Of a stretch of DNA of 26,381 nucleotides, positions 14,532 to 24,814 are shown in pieces. A program made the position numbers and the translations under genes. Each line of letters begins with the position of its first letter. The first letter of the stretch is position 1. The stretch is from a virus (lineage: Duplodnaviria; Caudoviricetes): IMG/VR virus record IMGVR_UViG_3300048030_000249, positions 1-26,381 of that record; one strand, 5' to 3'. The notes below the pieces were generated by a model. It was not told where the DNA came from and made no database searches. It worked only from the letters and a program-made list of their open reading frames with translations.

Positions 14532-17500
14532 ATGGCTGAAAAAACTGATTTAAATGTATCCCCATATTACGATGATTACAGTGAAGATAAAAATTTTCAC
14601 AAGGTATTATACCGTGCAGGTAGGGCTCTACAATCTAGAGAATTAATCCAATCACAATCTATATTACAAAATCAGATTGAAAGATTTGGTGGTCATATGT
14701 TTAAAGAGGGTTCTATTGTTCAAGGAGCTCAGACTGATATTAACATGGAATTATACTATGTTAAAGTTGACTCTGCAAATCCAAATTCACTAGGTGATAC
14801 AAATGCAGAAACTTATAGACAATCATTCCACGGAAAATTTCTTAAAGGTAAAACAACAGGAGTTGTTGCAAAGGTTATAACTTCATCTGCAGAAACTACA
14901 GACGATTCTTTAACACTATTTGTTAAATACCAATCACAAGGAACAGACACATCAAACTCATTCACATTCAGTTCTGCAGAAGAGTTGCAGGAAGTAACTG
15001 TAGATGGAGATGGTGTTGTTGCACTTAATACAACTAACTATAATGAGTTTACAGTTGGAACAGAAACAACAATCAATAGTGTTAATGGACTAGCATCTAT
15101 TGCAAATATATCAGAAGGTGTTGTATTCATAAGAGGATTCTTTATTAAAGTTCCTGCACAAGAGTTAATACTAGAAAAGTATAGTGGGAGACCTTCATAT
15201 AGAGTTGGTTTAACTATTGTTGAATCTGCAATCAATTCAGCAACAGATGATTCATTAAATGATAATGCAACAGGAACTACTAATGAGAATGCGCCAGGTG
15301 GTGATAGATTATCAATTGCATTAACATTAAGTAAGTATGCACTTACTACTACTGATGACTCAGACTTTGTTGAAACAATGAGAGTTAACAATGGTATTAT
15401 TGAATTAGAAGTCAATAGACCAATGTACAATGAAATAGAAAACACACTTGCTAGAAGAACATTCGATGCAAATGGTGATTTTGTTGTAAACCAATTTACA
15501 CATAGTTTAAGAGAACATTTAGACGATAGTACTAATAGAGGTTTTTATGCATCTTCCCAAGGTGGAGATGAAAGTCAATTTGTAATGCAAGTATCGCCAG
15601 GCAAAGCATATGTTAAAGGTTATGAGATTGATAAAGTTGGAACTACAACAATTCCTTTCTCAAAGGCAAGAACTACAGTTTCTTTAGATAATGCAAATAC
15701 ACCTATCAGATTAGGAAATAAATTAAAAGTTAAGAACATTCATTCATTACCCGAATTTGGTAATGAAGCAGGAGACGATGCAATGTCTCCATTTGCACCA
15801 TGTGAATTATGGAACACATCTATATCTTCAGCAGGTACAAAACCAACAACATTACAAATTGGAACTGCAAGAGTAAGAAACATTGATTTGGACAGTGGTT
15901 CAGATTCAGGTGATGTTTACACAAATGCATCCGTATTTAACTTGTATATGTTTGACATCAAAATGTTCACTAGAATTAGTGGTACATTAAGTGGAACATT
16001 TAGTACTGGAGATAGAGTTGTTTCTAGTAGTGGTGCAACTGCAATCGTATCACACACTGATGGTGCTGAATTGTTTGTACATGATGTTGTAGGAACATTT
16101 GTGATTGGGAATTCAATAACAACAGAAGGTGTAACTTCAGGTACAACAACAGTAACTGCAGTTAGGTCTTACAATGTTGACCGTGCAAGGTCAATTACAC
16201 AAACAGCAAAAAACACAAACAGAGAAATATTCACTGCAGACTTAGTTGCAGATTCGGACAAAACACTAACAGGTTCTTTAACTATGACTACAGGTGGTAC
16301 TGGAGTAACTGGTTTTGGAACTAAGTACTTGTCTGAATTAAAAGAAGGTGATATCATTGTCGACCAAGCAGGTAATGAGAATGTTGTTGCATCAGTTACC
16401 GATGATTTAAGTTTAACATTAACAGGTAATGGTTCAACTGCATTTAGTGGAAATGCAACAAGACGAAGAGTCAGAATCTTTGACCAAGACCAAACTGCTG
16501 CAATATCATCATGGCCGAGAGATTGGATATCATCACATACTGCAGAGTCTATTCAAGTAAGAAGACAAGAAGTTGTAACTGTTGCATCTAACGAAGTCCA
16601 GTTATCAACTGGTTCAAATGGTGTATTCGGTGCAAAGAATACTGATAACTTTACAATTGCAGTTATAGAAGCTGCAACAGGTTATGCACAAGGAGACCTT
16701 CTAAACATAGAAGACTTTGGTGGTTCACCACAATCTTCAGGTTCGGGTCAAACATTAACATTGACAGGATTTGATTCTGCTGACAATGGTGCAGTTCTAA
16801 GAGTTACTTCTACTATCACGATTACCGACCCAGTCAATAGAGACAAAACAATAAGACATGCAAGACTACTTAAAGTTGGTTCTGCAAGAAGTGCTGGTGG
16901 AAAATATGGTACTGCATATGACGATAGAGAAATATCGTTAGGTGTTGCAGATGCATTTAAAATCAGAGGAATCTATGAGGGAGTTGGAGGAACAACACCT
17001 CTACCACCTAGTGCAACATTTACAGTGTCTAGTGGGACATTCGTAAACTATGAAAAATTTATTGGACAAACATCTAATGCACATGGTATAATAATAACAA
17101 CAGGTGGAACAACATACTTCTATTATGTATCAGGAACATTTGTAGATGCAGAAACAGTTGTTGGTCAAACATCTAAATCAGTTGCAACATTAAGCAATGT
17201 ATCTCAAGGTTCATCAAACATAACATCTAGATATTTCTTTGACAATGGTCAGAGAGACGGTTTCTATGACTTAGGAAAACTTACACTTAAGACTGGTTCT
17301 GCTAAACCTTCAAATCCTATATTGATTTGTTTCGATTACTTTACACCGTCAGGAAGTGGAGACTTTTTTGATGTTGAATCATATGCATCAATAGACTATA
17401 GAGACATTCCAGTCTACTCACCAAATAAAGTGGACTTAGGTGGATTAGAGCCCGATGGAACATTTGAACTTTCAGATTCACTAGACTTCAGACCAGTTTG

Positions 17501-20500
17501 TGGTCAGATACTTGGTACATCTACATTCGGTAGTAATAATGCACAAGACCCAACAAATCCAGTAAACTTATCAACAGATGCTCAATTTGCACCGTTTGGT
17601 TATACTACTGGTAGAAACTTTGAAGGAAGTAGAACAGGTATTTCTTCAACTGGTGCTAATGCAACAGACACACCCGTTACTGGTTCAAGTTTTGTTGGAG
17701 ACATCTCATTCTATGTTGGAAGATACGATAAAGTATTCTTACATAAGTCAGGGTCATTCCAAACTTCAGTTGGAACACCAAGTCTAACTCCTTCTAAACC
17801 AAAGGGTGTTGATGAATCAATAGAGTTGTTTGAACTTTATGTTCCACCATATACTTTAAATCTTTCTAACATAAGAGTTAGGTCTCAAGACCATAGAAGA
17901 TTTACAATGAAAGATGTAGCAAGAATTAATAACAGAGTTACAAACTTAGAAAGAATTACTTCTTTATCTTTATTGGAGAAAGACACTCAAACAAAACAAA
18001 TAATAGATGAAGACGGACTAGACAGATTTAAGTCAGGTTTCTTAGTAGACAACTTCAGAGGACATAGAGTTGGAGATGTAAATCATCCCGATTATAATGT
18101 TGCTATAGATACTAAACTAGGTGCAATGAGACCTAAATCATATCAACAGTTCTTTGACATATCTTTGAATACTGCAACGTCATCTAGTTATACTAAGACT
18201 GGAGATTTGATAACACTACCATTTAGTGAATCATCTTTTGTCAATCAAGATAAAGCATCTAGAACAATCAATGTAAACCCATATAATGTCTTTGCATTTA
18301 TAGGAAACATCAAGTTAACGCCAGGCACAGATGTCTGGCAAGATACAGACCAACTACCCGAAGTAAGAATTAACAGGGAAGGAAACTTCGATGCAATTCA
18401 AGCATTAAATGAAAATGCACTTGGAACAGTTTGGAACTCATGGCAAACAACATGGGTTGGAGAACCTGCACAGGTTTCATCAGAGGTTGAATCAACTTCT
18501 AATGGTTCATGGAGTGGAGACCCAACACAAGGTGGTGAATGGGTTGCTGGACAACAAATAACAAGAGAGATTACAGAAACTGTTGAAACACAAACAAGAA
18601 CTGGTGTTACAACAAGTGTAGTCGAAGACTTTGTAGAAACAAGAAATGACAGAGTTGTAAGTGTAACACTTATACCATTCATGCGTGCTAGAACAATTGA
18701 GATTGATGCAGATAACTTAAAACCAAATACAAACCACTATGTGTTCTTTGATAACATGAGAGTGGATGAATACACTAGACCATTTAGTGCAACGTATTCA
18801 CAAGATGGTGGAGTAACAGCAACATCATTCTTAAAAACAGATGGAAATGGAAGACTTCGTGCATACTTTGATTTACCAAATACAGATAAACAAAGATTCC
18901 CAACAGGAATGAGAGAAGTTAAGATAACTTCAAGTTTCTATAATTTAAGTAATCCACCTTCAAGTGGAACTGAAATATATCAAGCACAAGGATTACTACA
19001 ATCTTCACAAACAGAAGTAGTATCTACAAGAAATGCAAGAGTTATAACTGGTTCTACAACTGGTGACAGAACAATAACAAGAAGGGGTGAGATATTGAAT
19101 ACTGAAGTATTTGATGATGTTGCACCTATTATACCTATTGATATTATTCCACCAGTAATAATAGACCCACCTATTGTGTCTCCATTATTACCTCCAGTTG
19201 TTCTTCCACCATTACCGATTGAACCACCATTACCTCCATTTATAGGTATTGGTAGAAGAAGAAGGTTCGAAGATTTCGAAATGAGATTTGACTTGGAAGA
19301 TTTGGAGCCAAGATGGAGAGACCCTCTTGCACAATCATTCATGGTAGAATCAAACGGTGGTATGTTTGTATCTTCAATAGATGTATTCTTTGAGACAAAG
19401 GATGCAACATTGCCTGTATCTGTAGAAATCAGAAACATGGTAAACGGATATCCTGGCCAGCTGGTCATGCCATTCTCTATTGCAACTAAAACACCTTCAC
19501 AAGTTAACACTTCAACAGATGGTTCAGTTGCAACAACATTTACATTTGATTCACCAGTGTATCTAAAACAAAACCAAGAGATGTGTTTTGTTGTATACTC
19601 AAACTCAAATGAATATAATGTGTTCATATCTAGAATGGGTGAAACAGACCTTGCAACAGGACAGACAATTGCAGGACAACCATATGCTGGTTCATTATTC
19701 ATGTCTCAAAATGCATCTACATGGACTGCAGAACAGACTGATGATTTGAAATTCAATCTTAAGAAGTGTAAATTCGATATTACTAAGACACCACTTCTTA
19801 AATTTGATAACGATACATTACCAGTTCATACATTACAGAACAATCCAATCGAAACATTTAGTGGACAAAACTATGTAAGAGTGATAAACTATCTACATGG
19901 AATGTATACCACATCATCCAACACGACTGTAGCAAGTGTAGTTGGAGATAAACAGGGGTCTGTATTAACTATTGGAACACCAGTAGTTTCAGGAACACCT
20001 GCAAACGGAACTTATACTAATGTTGCAACTACTACTACTGGAAGTGGAGTAGGATGTACGGTTGATGTTATTGTTACAGATAGTGCTGTATCATCATGTG
20101 TTATTAGTGGAACTGGAAGTAATTATACTGAATCAGATTCATTAACTATAACAAACTTTGATGGTGGAACTACAGATGCAACTATTGCTATCGACTCTAT
20201 TGGTGAGACACTAGGTGGTATTCCAGTAAGTGCTATCAATTCAACATTTACTGCAATTTCAAATATTGCTATCGACTCATTTACAGTGATTCCCGATTTA
20301 TCAGCATTCGATTTAAAAGCAGGATATGTTGCAGATAATAGTACACTAGGTGGTGGAAGTGTTGCAACTGCATCAAGAGATTACTACTTTGATTCATTAC
20401 ATACAATGATTCCAAGCACACAAGTTGAGGGAACAAGAATTGTATCTTCAGTAAACTTGACTCCTGCAACTTCACCCGAAGGATACATAAATGGAACTGC

Positions 20501-21137
20501 ATATACTAAGAGACTTGATAATGACTTTATCACTTTGAATGATAATGCATTCTTAGGTTTCCCAAGTATGGTTGCATCATCAATAAATGAAACAAACGAA
20601 ATGAGTGGTGCTAAATCATTTACAACTGTATTACAAATGCAGTCGTTTAATAATAATATTTCACCAGTTGTGGATGTATCATCTATTGGTGTGATTGGAA
20701 TCGGAAACAGATTAAATCAAATCAATAGTTCTAGCGACCTATCAATTGCAACTGATTATGTCTCATCTACAGAAAGTGATGCAGACAATAATGCAATGGT
20801 ATACTGTACTAGAAAAGTAAATTTAAAGACTCCTGCATCATCCGTTAAGGTTATTGCAGATTTCTTTAGACCACCAACTACAGATTTAAAAGTTATGTTC
20901 AAAGTGTTATCAAATGATGATTCAACACCTTTTGATGAACTGGATTGGAGATACTTCAATACAGATGGTTCACCCGATATAACTACAGAAAGAGATGCAA
21001 GAAACTTTAAAGAATATGAGTTTACTGCAGAGAACTTACCCGAGTTCAGTGCATTTGCAGTTAAGATAGTTGGACAGGGAACTAACACTTCAGTAGTACC
21101 ATTGGTATCTGCTCTTAGGTGTTTAGCACTTGCATAA
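14532..21137 (+). CDS. Large baseplate/virion protein, DUF4815 (VrlC-like)
   Basis: 2201 aa. N-terminal LNVSPYYDDY...KNFHKVL.R.GR.LQ.REL.Q.QSILQNQIE.FG.H.FKEGS; also APG.DR, GKAYVKGYE, RFKSGF.VDNF and DPLAQSF. Follows gp8 as in marine T4-like phages. Confidence 0.85.
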   Translation: MAEKTDLNVSPYYDDYSEDKNFHKVLYRAGRALQSRELIQSQSILQNQIERFGGHMFKEGSIVQGAQTDINMELYYVKVDSANPNSLGDTNAETYRQSFHGKFLKGKTTGVVAKVITSSAETTDDSLTLFVKYQSQGTDTSNSFTFSSAEELQEVTVDGDGVVALNTTNYNEFTVGTETTINSVNGLASIANISEGVVFIRGFFIKVPAQELILEKYSGRPSYRVGLTIVESAINSATDDSLNDNATGTTNENAPGGDRLSIALTLSKYALTTTDDSDFVETMRVNNGIIELEVNRPMYNEIENTLARRTFDANGDFVVNQFTHSLREHLDDSTNRGFYASSQGGDESQFVMQVSPGKAYVKGYEIDKVGTTTIPFSKARTTVSLDNANTPIRLGNKLKVKNIHSLPEFGNEAGDDAMSPFAPCELWNTSISSAGTKPTTLQIGTARVRNIDLDSGSDSGDVYTNASVFNLYMFDIKMFTRISGTLSGTFSTGDRVVSSSGATAIVSHTDGAELFVHDVVGTFVIGNSITTEGVTSGTTTVTAVRSYNVDRARSITQTAKNTNREIFTADLVADSDKTLTGSLTMTTGGTGVTGFGTKYLSELKEGDIIVDQAGNENVVASVTDDLSLTLTGNGSTAFSGNATRRRVRIFDQDQTAAISSWPRDWISSHTAESIQVRRQEVVTVASNEVQLSTGSNGVFGAKNTDNFTIAVIEAATGYAQGDLLNIEDFGGSPQSSGSGQTLTLTGFDSADNGAVLRVTSTITITDPVNRDKTIRHARLLKVGSARSAGGKYGTAYDDREISLGVADAFKIRGIYEGVGGTTPLPPSATFTVSSGTFVNYEKFIGQTSNAHGIIITTGGTTYFYYVSGTFVDAETVVGQTSKSVATLSNVSQGSSNITSRYFFDNGQRDGFYDLGKLTLKTGSAKPSNPILICFDYFTPSGSGDFFDVESYASIDYRDIPVYSPNKVDLGGLEPDGTFELSDSLDFRPVCGQILGTSTFGSNNAQDPTNPVNLSTDAQFAPFGYTTGRNFEGSRTGISSTGANATDTPVTGSSFVGDISFYVGRYDKVFLHKSGSFQTSVGTPSLTPSKPKGVDESIELFELYVPPYTLNLSNIRVRSQDHRRFTMKDVARINNRVTNLERITSLSLLEKDTQTKQIIDEDGLDRFKSGFLVDNFRGHRVGDVNHPDYNVAIDTKLGAMRPKSYQQFFDISLNTATSSSYTKTGDLITLPFSESSFVNQDKASRTINVNPYNVFAFIGNIKLTPGTDVWQDTDQLPEVRINREGNFDAIQALNENALGTVWNSWQTTWVGEPAQVSSEVESTSNGSWSGDPTQGGEWVAGQQITREITETVETQTRTGVTTSVVEDFVETRNDRVVSVTLIPFMRARTIEIDADNLKPNTNHYVFFDNMRVDEYTRPFSATYSQDGGVTATSFLKTDGNGRLRAYFDLPNTDKQRFPTGMREVKITSSFYNLSNPPSSGTEIYQAQGLLQSSQTEVVSTRNARVITGSTTGDRTITRRGEILNTEVFDDVAPIIPIDIIPPVIIDPPIVSPLLPPVVLPPLPIEPPLPPFIGIGRRRRFEDFEMRFDLEDLEPRWRDPLAQSFMVESNGGMFVSSIDVFFETKDATLPVSVEIRNMVNGYPGQLVMPFSIATKTPSQVNTSTDGSVATTFTFDSPVYLKQNQEMCFVVYSNSNEYNVFISRMGETDLATGQTIAGQPYAGSLFMSQNASTWTAEQTDDLKFNLKKCKFDITKTPLLKFDNDTLPVHTLQNNPIETFSGQNYVRVINYLHGMYTTSSNTTVASVVGDKQGSVLTIGTPVVSGTPANGTYTNVATTTTGSGVGCTVDVIVTDSAVSSCVISGTGSNYTESDSLTITNFDGGTTDATIAIDSIGETLGGIPVSAINSTFTAISNIAIDSFTVIPDLSAFDLKAGYVADNSTLGGGSVATASRDYYFDSLHTMIPSTQVEGTRIVSSVNLTPATSPEGYINGTAYTKRLDNDFITLNDNAFLGFPSMVASSINETNEMSGAKSFTTVLQMQSFNNNISPVVDVSSIGVIGIGNRLNQINSSSDLSIATDYVSSTESDADNNAMVYCTRKVNLKTPASSVKVIADFFRPPTTDLKVMFKVLSNDDSTPFDELDWRYFNTDGSPDITTERDARNFKEYEFTAENLPEFSAFAVKIVGQGTNTSVVPLVSALRCLALA

Positions 21138-21346
21138 TGAAGGTAGAAGGACATAGTAATCTTATAAGAGATGAACATTCTTCTGCTATTGTAAGTACAG
21201 ATTATAATGGGTATCTTGCAGTAAAGAAGAGACGTGAGTTACAAAAGAAAACGACAGAGGATATAAATACATTAAAGGAAGAGGTGGGAGAGATTAAAAA
21301 TCTACTTTCAGACTTAATAGAGAAATTACATGGCAAAGACAGTTAA
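21137..21346 (+). CDS. Small conserved T4-like phage protein with C-terminal coiled coil
   Basis: The likely start is the ATG at 21137 (TAATG overlap) rather than 21119, giving 69 aa: MKVEGHSNLIRDEHSSAIV...INTLKEEVGEIKNLL. Confidence 0.75.
   Translation: MKVEGHSNLIRDEHSSAIVSTDYNGYLAVKKRRELQKKTTEDINTLKEEVGEIKNLLSDLIEKLHGKDS
21262..21269 (+). promoter_or_regulatory. Possible internal late promoter for the fibre genes
   Basis: Exact TATAAATA about 60 nt upstream of 21330. It lies inside a CDS and lacks the downstream G seen at most other sites. Confidence 0.35.
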
Positions 21347-22514
21347 TCAGTTTAGTACTATAGAAGACTTCAGAAAGAAGTATAACGAACTTGCAATTGA
21401 TGTAGGGGATAAGAGTGGATTAAGAACAACCAACTCTTCTACATTGGTCGATGCAGTAAATTCACTAGAAGATAAATCATTCTTCTTCCAAGAATTTGTT
21501 TATATTGCAACTGCTGGACAAACTGCTTTTAGTGGTGACGATTCATTTGGAAACTCTTTAGAGTTCCGTGCAAATAGAATCCAAGTGTTCAAAAATGCAC
21601 AACATTTAATTGAAGGAACAGACTTCACAATTAGTGGTGCAAGTGGAAACAAACACACTATTATAACTTTAACTTCAGGTGCAACAGTATCTGATAAAGT
21701 TGTAATCTATTCATTTACAGGTTCTTACTTAGGAACAAACATTGGTTCAGGTAGTGGAGTTGCAGGACAGTTTACAGAGACTGCTGCAAATACTATTTAC
21801 AATATCAATGATTCAGGTGTTATTCTAAATGGAGAAGGTTCTCCAAATCAAACAACATCATTACAGAGTGGATTCAATATTCAACTTGCAGGAAAGACTT
21901 ATGCAGAAGATGATATAACACTTGCAAGTGGTAAAACTCTAACAGCATCAACACTAACAGATGGAACTGCATCTATTTCAGGTGGAGTTGGAACAGGTTT
22001 TAGTTCTATAACATCAACATCATTAGTAGGTGCATTAACAGGTAATGCAACAACATCATCAACAACATCTTCTATATCAAACCATGCAGTAAGTGGTTTG
22101 AGTGATGTGCAAACTAGTTCACCACAAAATGGACAATTGATGGTTTGGAACAATTCTGCAGGATATTGGGAAAACCAAAATGCAGCTGCAACTTATACAA
22201 ATGAAGATGCAATGGATGCTGCTGCTGGAATGATTACTAGTGCAACACATAGTAACATAACTGTAAGTTATGATGATGCAAATAACACACTGGCATTTTC
22301 TGCAGCTGCACAATATGGTGATTCAGATGCAAGAAGTGCTATTTCGGGTGGAGATGGTTTAACTTATAACTCATCTAATGGTGTGATGGCTGCAAATACA
22401 TCAAATGGTGTTAAGATAGACTCAGATAATATTGAATTAGACTATGAAGTCGTTAGTAATGCCCCTTCGGGAGTTGGGTCAACATCAACTGGACACTTAT
22501 GGTTCGTTATATAA
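21330..22514 (+). CDS. Fibre/whisker-like structural protein
   Basis: 394 aa. N-terminal T.EDFRKKYNEL..DVGD...L......LV.AVN, an ATAGQT.F beta module, a Gly/Ser/Thr-rich shaft, an LSDV....PQNGQ.MVWN....W module and C-terminal APSG.....GHLWFVI. Confidence 0.7.
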   Translation: MAKTVNQFSTIEDFRKKYNELAIDVGDKSGLRTTNSSTLVDAVNSLEDKSFFFQEFVYIATAGQTAFSGDDSFGNSLEFRANRIQVFKNAQHLIEGTDFTISGASGNKHTIITLTSGATVSDKVVIYSFTGSYLGTNIGSGSGVAGQFTETAANTIYNINDSGVILNGEGSPNQTTSLQSGFNIQLAGKTYAEDDITLASGKTLTASTLTDGTASISGGVGTGFSSITSTSLVGALTGNATTSSTTSSISNHAVSGLSDVQTSSPQNGQLMVWNNSAGYWENQNAAATYTNEDAMDAAAGMITSATHSNITVSYDDANNTLAFSAAAQYGDSDARSAISGGDGLTYNSSNGVMAANTSNGVKIDSDNIELDYEVVSNAPSGVGSTSTGHLWFVI

Positions 22515-22523
22515 GATTATGCT

Positions 22524-23771
22524 ATGTCAGATGAAATTTATATAAACACTGGGACAACGATACAACAACCCTTTAATCAGAGAAACCCTGCACAAGGAAC
22601 TACACCGACAACTGCACAGAGGACTGCTCAACAACCTGCAATTGCACAACAGCCAGGCACTTATAGTAACAGGTCTCCTTTTACATATAGACATCCTGCA
22701 AATGGACAACAACCCTACATAGCAAATGCTCAGCAACCGTATCCTTACATTGCTAATGCACAAAATCCTTATCCTGCAAATGCACAACAACCGTATCCAT
22801 ATATAGCAAATGCACAACAACCGTATCCATATATTGCAAATGCAAGGCAACCTTATATAGCAAATGCACAACAACCGTATCCATATATTGCTAATGCACA
22901 AACATCGTATCCTGCAAATGCCCAACAACCTTATCCGTATATTGCAAATGCCCAACAACCTTATCCGTACATTGCTAATGCACAAAATCCTTATCCTGCA
23001 AATGCTCAGCAACCTTATCCGTATATTGCAAATAGTCAAAGTCCGTACTCATATAACCAACCATCAACATATAGTAGACAGGGAACTACTGTAACGAATG
23101 TATCATATACTGAAACATTAACTGCCCAAGATACACTTAGTTTTAGTGGACATGGGGATAATCATGTTAGATTTGATATAGCTAATGTAAGTAGTAGACA
23201 GTTTGAAATTATTGATGGTCGAGTCAACTTTCTTATAACTATTTCTACATCGGGGTCTAATACTATTTTTAATATGGATGTTCGATATCAAACTCATTTT
23301 GGTGATGGATTTAGTGGTTTTGTTGGAGTTAGTGGAACACCTTCTAGTATCTCATTGCCCACAAACCAAACTTATAGAGATGTATTCCAATACTCGTTCC
23401 CAACATCAACAGCACCCACAACTTTTGGATACGAAGAAACCGATGCACCTATTTTCACCAAGTTTCCAAATTATTCATCACATTCTGTAGGTCATGTGTG
23501 GGCAGCTGGAGTTGGTTCTACATACACTTTGTCAGAAGGAACTACTAATTCGACAGTGCAAAATGGTACTTTTGCATTTGGTTGTGGTTTCACCCATTCT
23601 AGAGCCCCTAGTGGAAATACTAACTTTAGTGCTTATGGAGAAGGAAGTGTTGCATTTGACTTGAAATTTAACAGAAGTGGATTTCCTGAATTATCATCAG
23701 AAGAAATACACGTGATGGCCACATTTGAAAATGAGTATTCAGGTAGTAGTGGTGGTGGAGGGCCGTTCTAA
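22524..23771 (+). CDS. Repeat fibre protein A: QQPYPYIANA array plus unique C-terminal (putative receptor-binding) domain
   Basis: 415 aa. Residues 62-171 are twelve 8/10-aa repeats. Residues from about 190 to 415 are non-repetitive and aromatic/beta-rich. Confidence 0.8.
   Translation: MSDEIYINTGTTIQQPFNQRNPAQGTTPTTAQRTAQQPAIAQQPGTYSNRSPFTYRHPANGQQPYIANAQQPYPYIANAQNPYPANAQQPYPYIANAQQPYPYIANARQPYIANAQQPYPYIANAQTSYPANAQQPYPYIANAQQPYPYIANAQNPYPANAQQPYPYIANSQSPYSYNQPSTYSRQGTTVTNVSYTETLTAQDTLSFSGHGDNHVRFDIANVSSRQFEIIDGRVNFLITISTSGSNTIFNMDVRYQTHFGDGFSGFVGVSGTPSSISLPTNQTYRDVFQYSFPTSTAPTTFGYEETDAPIFTKFPNYSSHSVGHVWAAGVGSTYTLSEGTTNSTVQNGTFAFGCGFTHSRAPSGNTNFSAYGEGSVAFDLKFNRSGFPELSSEEIHVMATFENEYSGSSGGGGPF
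22707..23036 (+). repeat. Coding tandem array A, 12 units of 24/30 nt
   Basis: Unit lengths in aa are 8,10,8,10,10,8,10,8,10,10,8,10 (total 110 aa). Nucleotide core resembles caacaacc(g/t)tatcc(a/g/t)tatattgcaaatgc. Confidence 0.95.
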
Positions 23772-24463
23772 TGCCTATTTGGACATCAAACCCATCTCCG
23801 TATCCGTATATTGCTAGTGCGCAGAGTCCTGCAATAGGTCAATCTCCTTCTACATATTCTAGACAAGGTCAAACACCGTTTACGTATATTGCAAGACAAC
23901 CTACTACTTATTCAAGACAGGGTCAAACACCGTTTACGTATAATGCAACAGGAAGAACCCCTTTTACGTATATTGCAAGACAACCTAGTACATATGCAAG
24001 ACAAGGTCAGACACCTTTTACGTATCAAGCAAGGTCTCCTTTTACATATGAAAGACAGGGTCAAACACCGTTTACATATCAGAGAACTGGTAGAACACCA
24101 TTTACGTATATTGCAAGACAACCTAGTACATATGCACGACAAGGACAAACACCTTTTACATATCAAGCAAGGTCTCCAATCACATATAGACATCCTGCAT
24201 CAGCACAACAACCTTATATTGCAAACTCACAAACTAATGTTGTATATCAAGTTACCTATAATACACCTTATACATTCCAAGCACCATACATATATCAACA
24301 ACCCTCAATTGCAACTAGAGGAGTAGGGCCAGTTGCAAAGGTTAAAGGTGTATATGTAAATGATAATGGAACTCTAAGAAAATTATCAGAAGTATATGCA
24401 AACAATAGTGGAACGGTAGAAAAAATACATCAGTCTGTACCTACTTCTCAGTTTAGTAATTAA
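23771..24463 (+). CDS. Repeat fibre protein B: TPFTY..RQGQ array
   Basis: 230 aa with a TAATG overlap and GGAGG SD at 23757-23761. Residues 25-134 are twelve 8/10-aa repeats. C-terminal VKGVYVNDNGTLRK..EVYANNSG. Confidence 0.8.
   Translation: MPIWTSNPSPYPYIASAQSPAIGQSPSTYSRQGQTPFTYIARQPTTYSRQGQTPFTYNATGRTPFTYIARQPSTYARQGQTPFTYQARSPFTYERQGQTPFTYQRTGRTPFTYIARQPSTYARQGQTPFTYQARSPITYRHPASAQQPYIANSQTNVVYQVTYNTPYTFQAPYIYQQPSIATRGVGPVAKVKGVYVNDNGTLRKLSEVYANNSGTVEKIHQSVPTSQFSN
23843..24172 (+). repeat. Coding tandem array B, 12 units of 30/24 nt
   Basis: Unit lengths in aa are 10,8,10,10,8,10,8,10,10,8,10,8 (total 110 aa). tattgcaagacaacctagtacatatgca occurs at 23971 and 24109, a 138-nt period. Confidence 0.95.
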
Positions 24464-24481: not shown

Positions 24482-24814
24482 ATGGCTATACTTGCAAACA
24501 TTTTTATCGACCAAGGAACAGACTTCAGTATTACAGTAGATGTAACCGATTCTGCAGGTGATGTGTTGAATATGACTAATTACACTTCTGCAGGTCAAAT
24601 AAGAAAAACATACACCTCCTCAACTGTTAGTGCAACCTTTACCACAAGTATTAATGCAGCTGCAGGTCAAGTAACATTATCTTTAAACGATACTACAACT
24701 TCAGGATTAGAAGCAGGTAGATACGTTTACGATTTAAATATAACATCAGGTGGAGGACAAACCACAAGAGTGGTTGAAGGACAAGCAATAGTCACACCTG
24801 GCGTAACGAGGTAG
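24482..24814 (+). CDS. Conserved virion structural/adaptor protein (Ig/BppU-N-like)
   Basis: 110 aa. Motifs N..IDQGTDF, QIRK.Y, G.V.LSL....T..L.AGRYVYD and RVVEG...VTPGVTR, typical of small structural proteins of marine T4-like phages. Confidence 0.75.
   Translation: MAILANIFIDQGTDFSITVDVTDSAGDVLNMTNYTSAGQIRKTYTSSTVSATFTTSINAAAGQVTLSLNDTTTSGLEAGRYVYDLNITSGGGQTTRVVEGQAIVTPGVTR

Follow-up and report, generated by a model that had tools for sequence, protein, structure and literature searches.

Genes at the locus and their genomic setting

The window, by which we mean the whole 26,381-nucleotide stretch of viral DNA analyzed here, carries T4-like baseplate genes in the order tail tube cap, wedge subunits, gp5-like hub, gp25, gp6, and gp8, a series that ends with a 2201 amino acid protein identified by PHROG and Pfam matches as phrog_358/DUF4815 and encoded by what we take to be a VrlC-like gene. 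Around residues 1535-1600 of this large baseplate protein (gene 14532-21137), a low-complexity Pro/Ile-rich insert is followed by a run of arginines. Two adjacent repeat genes, here called A and B, lie directly behind the baseplate block and the large VrlC-type gene, and are accompanied by an upstream fibre-like gene and a conserved downstream gene:

14532..21137, + strand, large baseplate protein (phrog_358, DUF4815)
21330..22514, + strand, upstream fibre-like gene, 394 aa, ending in ...GHLWFVI; candidate for docking the A/B base
22524..23771, + strand, gene A, 415 aa: N-terminal anchor, putative outgoing repeat strand, and C-terminal tip domain
22572..23084, + strand, residues 17-187 of A, a gapless mirror of B residues 181-11 at i+j=198 (local alignment)
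22707..23036, + strand, A core array, aa 62-171: 12 units (QQPYPYIANA / xxPYxANA)
23085..23768, + strand, A tip domain, aa 188-415: candidate adhesin, predicted all-beta sandwich
23771..24463, + strand, gene B, 230 aa: putative returning repeat strand and conserved C-terminal base module
23843..24172, + strand, B core array, aa 25-134: 12 units (xPxTYxRQGQ / TPFTYxAR)
24326..24460, + strand, B C-terminal module (GPVAKVKGVYVN...), matching phrog_13729, which terminates the fused forms as well
24482..24814, + strand, conserved downstream gene, 110 aa (phrog_1084; phrog_3304, 'L-shaped tail fiber protein assembly')

The stop of A and the start of B have one base in common (23771), and because contigs from two other studies bridge this junction with 0 and 1 differences, the A/B stop is a real split. 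RNA-library contigs, which are unable to show transcription, also span parts of the locus.

The gp8-like protein has its best cultured relatives in Pelagibacter phage HTVC008M (38.8%) and then in cyanomyophages, and the runs that hold the locus best are seawater or marine metagenomes, with at least half of the words in 14 runs, of which 3 are flagged as a possible source. In the available text of PMC7029224, the variable region behind the VrlC gene of pelagi- and cyanomyophages is the host recognition cluster, and this is the position that A and B occupy. We conclude that the genome is that of an uncultured marine T4-like myophage and that the A/B locus is its host-recognition region. Searches of cultured phages returned no match for A and matched the base modules only at E=7-9; four Pseudomonas phage matches to B were discarded for weak E-values, the two records inspected being regulatory or replication regions. 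Prokaryote genomes yielded a single match (L165, JAAXIF010000105.1), which runs along the whole of a fused A/B protein of the kind described below; the contig, 121 kb long and binned in a Sphingobacteriales MAG, is probably of phage origin and is not used here as evidence of the host.

The mirror in the window and in related gene pairs

The sequence-only reading had described two arrays of 12 units and 110 aa each, with unit lengths of 8,10,8,10,10,8,10,8,10,10,8,10 in A and exactly the reverse (10,8,10,10,8,10,8,10,10,8,10,8) in B, and recomputation reproduced all of this. So too did the prolines behave as reported: Pro-Pro matches reach their maximum of 17 at i+j=200, compared with 13 at the next best sum and 14 at the best parallel offset, the single exception within the arrays is A-S128 opposite B-P72, and the motif types are swapped at the array ends. 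Nor is the symmetry one of DNA, as had been noted; the arrays do not form an inverted repeat, and ungapped identity between A and the reverse complement of B does not exceed 42%. The gapless alignment of A 17-187 with B 181-11 was obtained with a pairing matrix trained without the window's own cluster. In a chance test, only 1 of 2000 unit-order shuffles of B attained the observed pairing score of 215.0 (null mean 111, sd 29). Unit lengths in the window alone hardly tell direction, because reversing the pattern 8,10,8,10,10 gives the same series, cyclically shifted. A 46-aa block underlies both arrays (DNA self-identity maxima of 0.80 and 0.82 at a 138-nt lag), and it is this higher-order repeat that yields 14 Pro-Pro matches at a parallel offset. 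As far as sequence can speak to it, the antiparallel direction is settled by the related pairs, beyond the lengths seen in the window.

IMG/VR searches, from which the best 80 of 264 and the best 80 of 203 related stretches were taken, gave 159 loci. Two complete repeat genes were present in 140 of these, representing 65 distinct pairs (the window's pair being one) and 35 clusters at 80% B identity; the 19 loci left out comprise 4 with a fused gene and 15 with one or a cut repeat gene, mostly near a contig edge. The pairs fall into two subfamilies, of 24 and 41 pairs, whose end modules differ. Several results bear on conservation of the mirror: i) the best antiparallel Pro-Pro register exceeds the best parallel register in 65 of 65 distinct pairs; ii) using a residue-pair matrix learned each time without the tested cluster, A and B align gaplessly in 61 of the 65, and the mirror is unbroken through the arrays in 63, the gap in L039 and L051 lying before the array; iii) the cognate B outscores all B proteins from other clusters in 64 of 65 cases, L011 falling just behind (268 vs 270), while Pro-Pro overlap alone ranks the cognate best for only 56 of the 65 A proteins and 61 of the 65 B proteins; iv) array spans, each protein being measured alone, are correlated across the 35 clusters (Pearson 0.91, Spearman 0.79); and v) aperiodic arrays of up to 533 residues are mirrored without a gap.

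Close relatives mostly gain or lose units in the two genes together. Among 25 comparisons of relatives, picked by hand and not independent of one another, both arrays differ by an identical net indel in 16 (for example +18/+18, -46/-46, -16/-16, and +2/+2), 4 show no indel, 1 is ambiguous, and 4 belong to two exceptions. A is 18 aa shorter in L065 than in the near-identical L052, with B equal in length, and 20 aa longer in L104 than in L057, with B identical, so that in both the mirror is broken inside the array; these mismatches may be assembly slips or real intermediates. The expectation that unit number and order in A always mirror those in B thus survives in the 63 unbroken pairs and fails by 18-20 residues in L065 and L104. 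Close homologues of A with shortened arrays exist as well, their partner B unseen. Judged by these alignments, the A/B mirror is real, conserved, and well beyond chance, and pairing of the A and B chains is strongly implied; because the mirror is kept in dozens of pairs and in one-gene fusions, A and B likely zip head-to-tail.

The neighborhood of the pairs has features of its own. The 110-aa downstream gene stands behind B in 23 of the 24 subfamily-1 pairs and in all 4 fused loci, and a gene of 499-543 aa stands behind B in all 41 subfamily-2 pairs. The same contig as the window's pair (L003) holds a second mirror pair, of subfamily 2 (272/224 aa, L150:5905-7437), which has a KV..W beta module at the A N-terminus; a similar-looking module occurs at the B C-terminus in subfamily 1. 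Behind this second pair is a cassette (L150:7480-11955) that includes a weak match to a GT8 glycosyltransferase together with two 2OG-Fe(II) oxygenases; its products might modify either the host surface or the fibre. In 14 of the 65 pairs, one or two small genes (82-100 aa) are inserted between A and B (loci L034:5687-5938, L047, L070, L108:7185-7487, L123, and L153); the two that were searched have no Pfam match, and it is possible that such genes encode tip caps or chaperones.

A proposed pairing code, fused genes, and the two ends

Mutual information between the arrays of the 65 pairs is maximal (1.31 bits) at an offset of -2, compared with 0.93 at the Pro-Pro register, and the best-covarying register in the window is i+j=198, which among sums from 180 to 219 scores 206 while the next scores 8. 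Since covariation peaks differ from contacts, we infer the exact register, and consider 198 more likely than 200 at the level of residues. At register 198, positions of the proline parity place Pro opposite Gln or Arg (91%) and Asn opposite Thr (75%), Arg itself being opposite Pro in 97% of cases at the best-covarying register; positions of the other parity place Phe opposite Ala (76%) and Tyr opposite Ala or Gly (60%), and aromatic-aromatic pairs account for 8 of 5752 at the best-covarying register. Three complementary unit pairs dominate, a 6-mer (PFTYRN with PVNAQT-type units), an 8-mer (PFTYQNRQ with PYIANAQQ), and a 10-mer (PGTYARQGQT with PYPYIANSQT), and either member of a pair is found in either gene.

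Proline in a two-stranded antiparallel beta-ribbon is confined to non-hydrogen-bonded positions, where it blocks the free edge. The single parity of the prolines fits this demand: 4997 of 4999 share one parity, as against 225 of 431 in tip domains, and matched Pro-Pro intervals are all even, mainly 6, 8, and 10. Pro, Ala, Gln, and Tyr are abundant in the arrays; one face of the predicted ribbon is 32% Tyr/Phe, and of the positions that would have to donate NH groups to close a barrel, 28% are prolines. Paired spans range from 159 to 533 residues.

Fused single-gene versions, foreseen as a check on the pairing, do exist. Four loci (L043, L049, L056, and L060) have a single gene with the N-end of A and the C-end of B, flanked by the same genes as in the split loci, and 40 of the 120 homologues listed for the L043 protein are fusions with the same two ends, a share biased by the choice of L043 as query. 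Fusions have self-mirror scores of 37-196 (median 78.5), compared with a median score of 18 among the 47 proteins that have only the A end. Because a fused self-mirrored gene often fills the same genomic slot, A and B together appear to be a split hairpin. An unrooted tree of the base modules (47 rows and 90 columns, without L037, P0003, P0033, and identical rows) requires a minimum of two switches between the split and the fused state. AlphaFold2 gave no confident ribbon model of a fused protein (pLDDT 37.6), and the long strands that it did place, 17-38 and 416-437, have a sum of 454, which is the sequence-predicted register and lends weak support, from modeling, to a ribbon.

More distant relatives were sought with a B profile, which returned 267 clusters (50% identity, E<=0.001) with unrelated repeat proteins among them; long eukaryote-like and bacterial repeat proteins from this search were discarded as compositional matches. 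P0229, P0217, and P0199 are distant forms that keep the same end modules and use a different repeat vocabulary of Arg/Val/His-rich units. The mirror is kept at the anchor register in P0229, with 9 Pro-Pro matches, and is not evident there in P0217, a distant fused relative whose arms are apparently unequal.

At the presumed base, the offset of the B C-terminus to the register is nearly constant inside each subfamily, although register sums span 185-596. The motif G-H/D-L/M/I-W, followed by three or four more residues, terminates the upstream gene in 63 of 65 pairs, the other 2 loci having no upstream gene, and in 4 of 4 fused loci; in the fetched loci this motif occurs 75 times at protein ends and never internally. 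No intact one-chain version of the motif was found among the fetched loci, so the idea of a split docking site is drawn from position only.

At the far end, the A tip of the window is modeled as a beta-sandwich (pLDDT 57, pTM 0.51). Fold searches with it gave no Foldseek match at E<=0.001 and a best Z of 4.9, below significance, the likeness being to beta-sandwiches in general with fimbrial adhesin domains among the top rows; in the Atlas, the tip had no usable match and B matched only viral clusters scoring <0.9. The window's tip has 11 homologues, and most relatives have some other sequence in its place. The far end of A measures 170-343 aa in subfamily 1, and in subfamily 2 either 139-169 aa (25 of 41 pairs) or at most 17 aa (16 of 41). 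The proposal that A carries a unique domain at the tip is thus not general, since the 16 short subfamily-2 pairs have no tip domain. A Hint (intein-like) domain forms the C-terminal tip of several A proteins (e.g. L038:993-2753 and L055:2505-3911), and many of the Hint-tipped proteins end in VLVHN-like motifs. P0125 and P0130 combine a subfamily-2 N-terminus with the window's subfamily-1 tip, and are either tip swaps by recombination through the repeats or assembly chimeras.

Proposed architecture, rival explanations, and known systems

We propose that A and B each make up one half of a split gene which occurs as one self-mirrored gene in related phages. Residue i of A would lie opposite residue 198-i of B in a two-stranded antiparallel beta-ribbon forming a thin tail-fibre stalk; prolines would occupy non-hydrogen-bonded positions opposite Gln or Arg and shield the free edges, and Tyr or Phe would fit Ala or Gly at hydrogen-bonded positions as knob and hole. 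The base would consist of the A N-terminus together with the B C-terminal module, and would dock on the G-H/D-L-W motif at the end of the upstream fibre protein. Changes in length might proceed in two steps, in which one array slips and the resulting bulge is tolerated until a compensating change or recombination follows in the other. We consider it most likely that A leaves the base and B returns, and that a beta-ribbon stalk of ~171 residue pairs (~56 nm, assuming 0.33 nm a residue) projects the variable domain of A hostward. The outgoing and returning strands of the sequence-only reading are favored, by inference, by the antiparallel preference of 65 out of 65 pairs, the matched indels, the proline parity, and the fusions, with a beta geometry that is itself a prediction. 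A 1:1 complex prediction of A(1-195) and B, with alignments, reached 0.04 and 0.10 against a mark of 0.32, and speaks neither for nor against the pairing. We lean, with less assurance, toward a more general statement: the stalk would be a protein duplex with a base-pair-like code, in which 6/8/10 unit pairs in any order make a free beta-ribbon of up to ~175 nm, and whose genes can split, fuse, lengthen both strands together, and swap tips.

Four other explanations were weighed. The window's length pattern, with a 46-aa period resembling its own reverse, is what one might expect were the mirror due to chance, to periodic repeats as a by-product, or to DNA-level inversion or gene conversion; the lack of an inverted repeat, the 1 in 2000 shuffles at the observed score, the gapless mirroring of aperiodic arrays to 533 residues, and the matched indels refute this explanation, whose probability we regard as negligible. 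Fibre chaperones are common, and B, matched to A in length, might serve as a ruler or folding template, pairing with A while the fibre assembles and missing from the finished virion, as the variable tip on A and the Hint domains of some A proteins, which could self-process, would allow; yet the B part is covalently joined to A in 40 of the 120 homologues listed, B ends in a conserved module, and A is little more than an array in 16 of 41 subfamily-2 pairs, so that we think a transient role for B very unlikely.

Upstream fibres of T4-like phages are usually trimers, and a ribbon face that is 32% Tyr/Phe could pack on partners. Three A/B ribbons might close into a six-stranded antiparallel needle with a trimeric tip, in keeping with the gp37-like trimer that the sequence-only reading had suggested, and would share the out-and-back topology of the gp37 needle (PMC7291167, in its available text). 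This part of the earlier proposal is not supported: PHROG, Pfam, and PDB-chain searches gave no sequence match to gp37, there are only 5 HxH motifs in 65 pairs, prolines fill 28% of the sites at which NH groups would have to close the barrel, and aromatics face small residues within the pair, which makes it look self-complementary already; closure into a needle is unlikely. The pairing could alternatively be antiparallel and not beta, for example polyproline-II against helix. Arrays rich in Pro, Ala, Gln, and Tyr would suit such a pairing, and the available text of PMC3178794 describes an out-and-back stalk of A and P repeats in antigen I/II; against it, both chains are punctuated by proline, and the even Pro-Pro intervals and a parity kept by 4997 of 4999 prolines indicate a period of two residues rather than three or 3.6, leaving little room for a non-beta pairing, which we hold to be highly improbable. 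We therefore retain the two-stranded beta-ribbon as the preferred reading.

If this reading is true, a fibre would be made of two gene products held in register across hundreds of residues by a small readable code, which permits sharp tests of cognate against scrambled partners. The arrays would let compensatory indel evolution between two genes be followed in nature, designers would gain a programmable beta-zipper, and the locus would mark an organ of host recognition in uncultured marine myophages, which turn up repeatedly in seawater metagenomes.

One of the closest known systems is the T4 gp37 needle, in which each chain folds back and iron is bound through HxH motifs. The available text of PMC7291167 describes an elongated antiparallel beta-strand shaft with a receptor-binding part at its end, and A/B would resemble gp37 (and the lambda Stf tip) as a phage fibre with such a shaft, here predicted, and a putative receptor-binding part at its far end. 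gp37 is one gene and a six-stranded needle, whereas A/B are two genes or one fused gene with 6/8/10 units and a complementarity code; both strands lie in one chain, as in gp37, only in the fused relatives and are divided between two genes in the window, and the iron-binding motif of gp37 is not a feature of the paired regions, with 5 HxH in all 65 pairs. A has no PHROG or Pfam family, B has only phrog_13729, and a B profile found no PDB chain at E<=1, results compatible with a remote kinship to gp37 or Stf. Streptococcal antigen I/II (SpaP/SspB/AspA) also pairs two different repeat regions out-and-back to project a variable head (PMC3178794, available text), but does so with an alpha-helix and a polyproline helix in one chain, and that text describes neither a reshufflable unit code nor a two-gene form; in A/B both chains are proline-punctuated with a two-residue period, rather than an Ala-rich helix with a polyproline-II helix. 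In the fibre of Pseudomonas podophage A1002, as far as the available text of PMC13730344 describes it, a gp39 rope carries gp40/gp41 dimers with beta-augmentation between chains; more than one gene product builds that fibre, as we propose for A/B, but globular dimers are strung on a rope protein and there are no mirrored repeat arrays. The host recognition cluster of pelagi- and cyanomyophages contains fibre genes and GT8 glycosyltransferases after the large VrlC-type gene, and A/B share its position, while the main text of PMC7029224, in the part available, does not mention such repeat proteins; nor was the A/B pair found in any cultured phage by our cultured-phage searches. A literature search, mostly of openly accessible main texts, found no description of mirrored repeat pairs, in line with the sequence-only reading, which knew of no fibre whose two strands come from separate genes with a length-matched repeat code. 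On the evidence of its genes, the locus would encode a two-gene, unit-coded antiparallel fibre of a design for which we found no described precedent.
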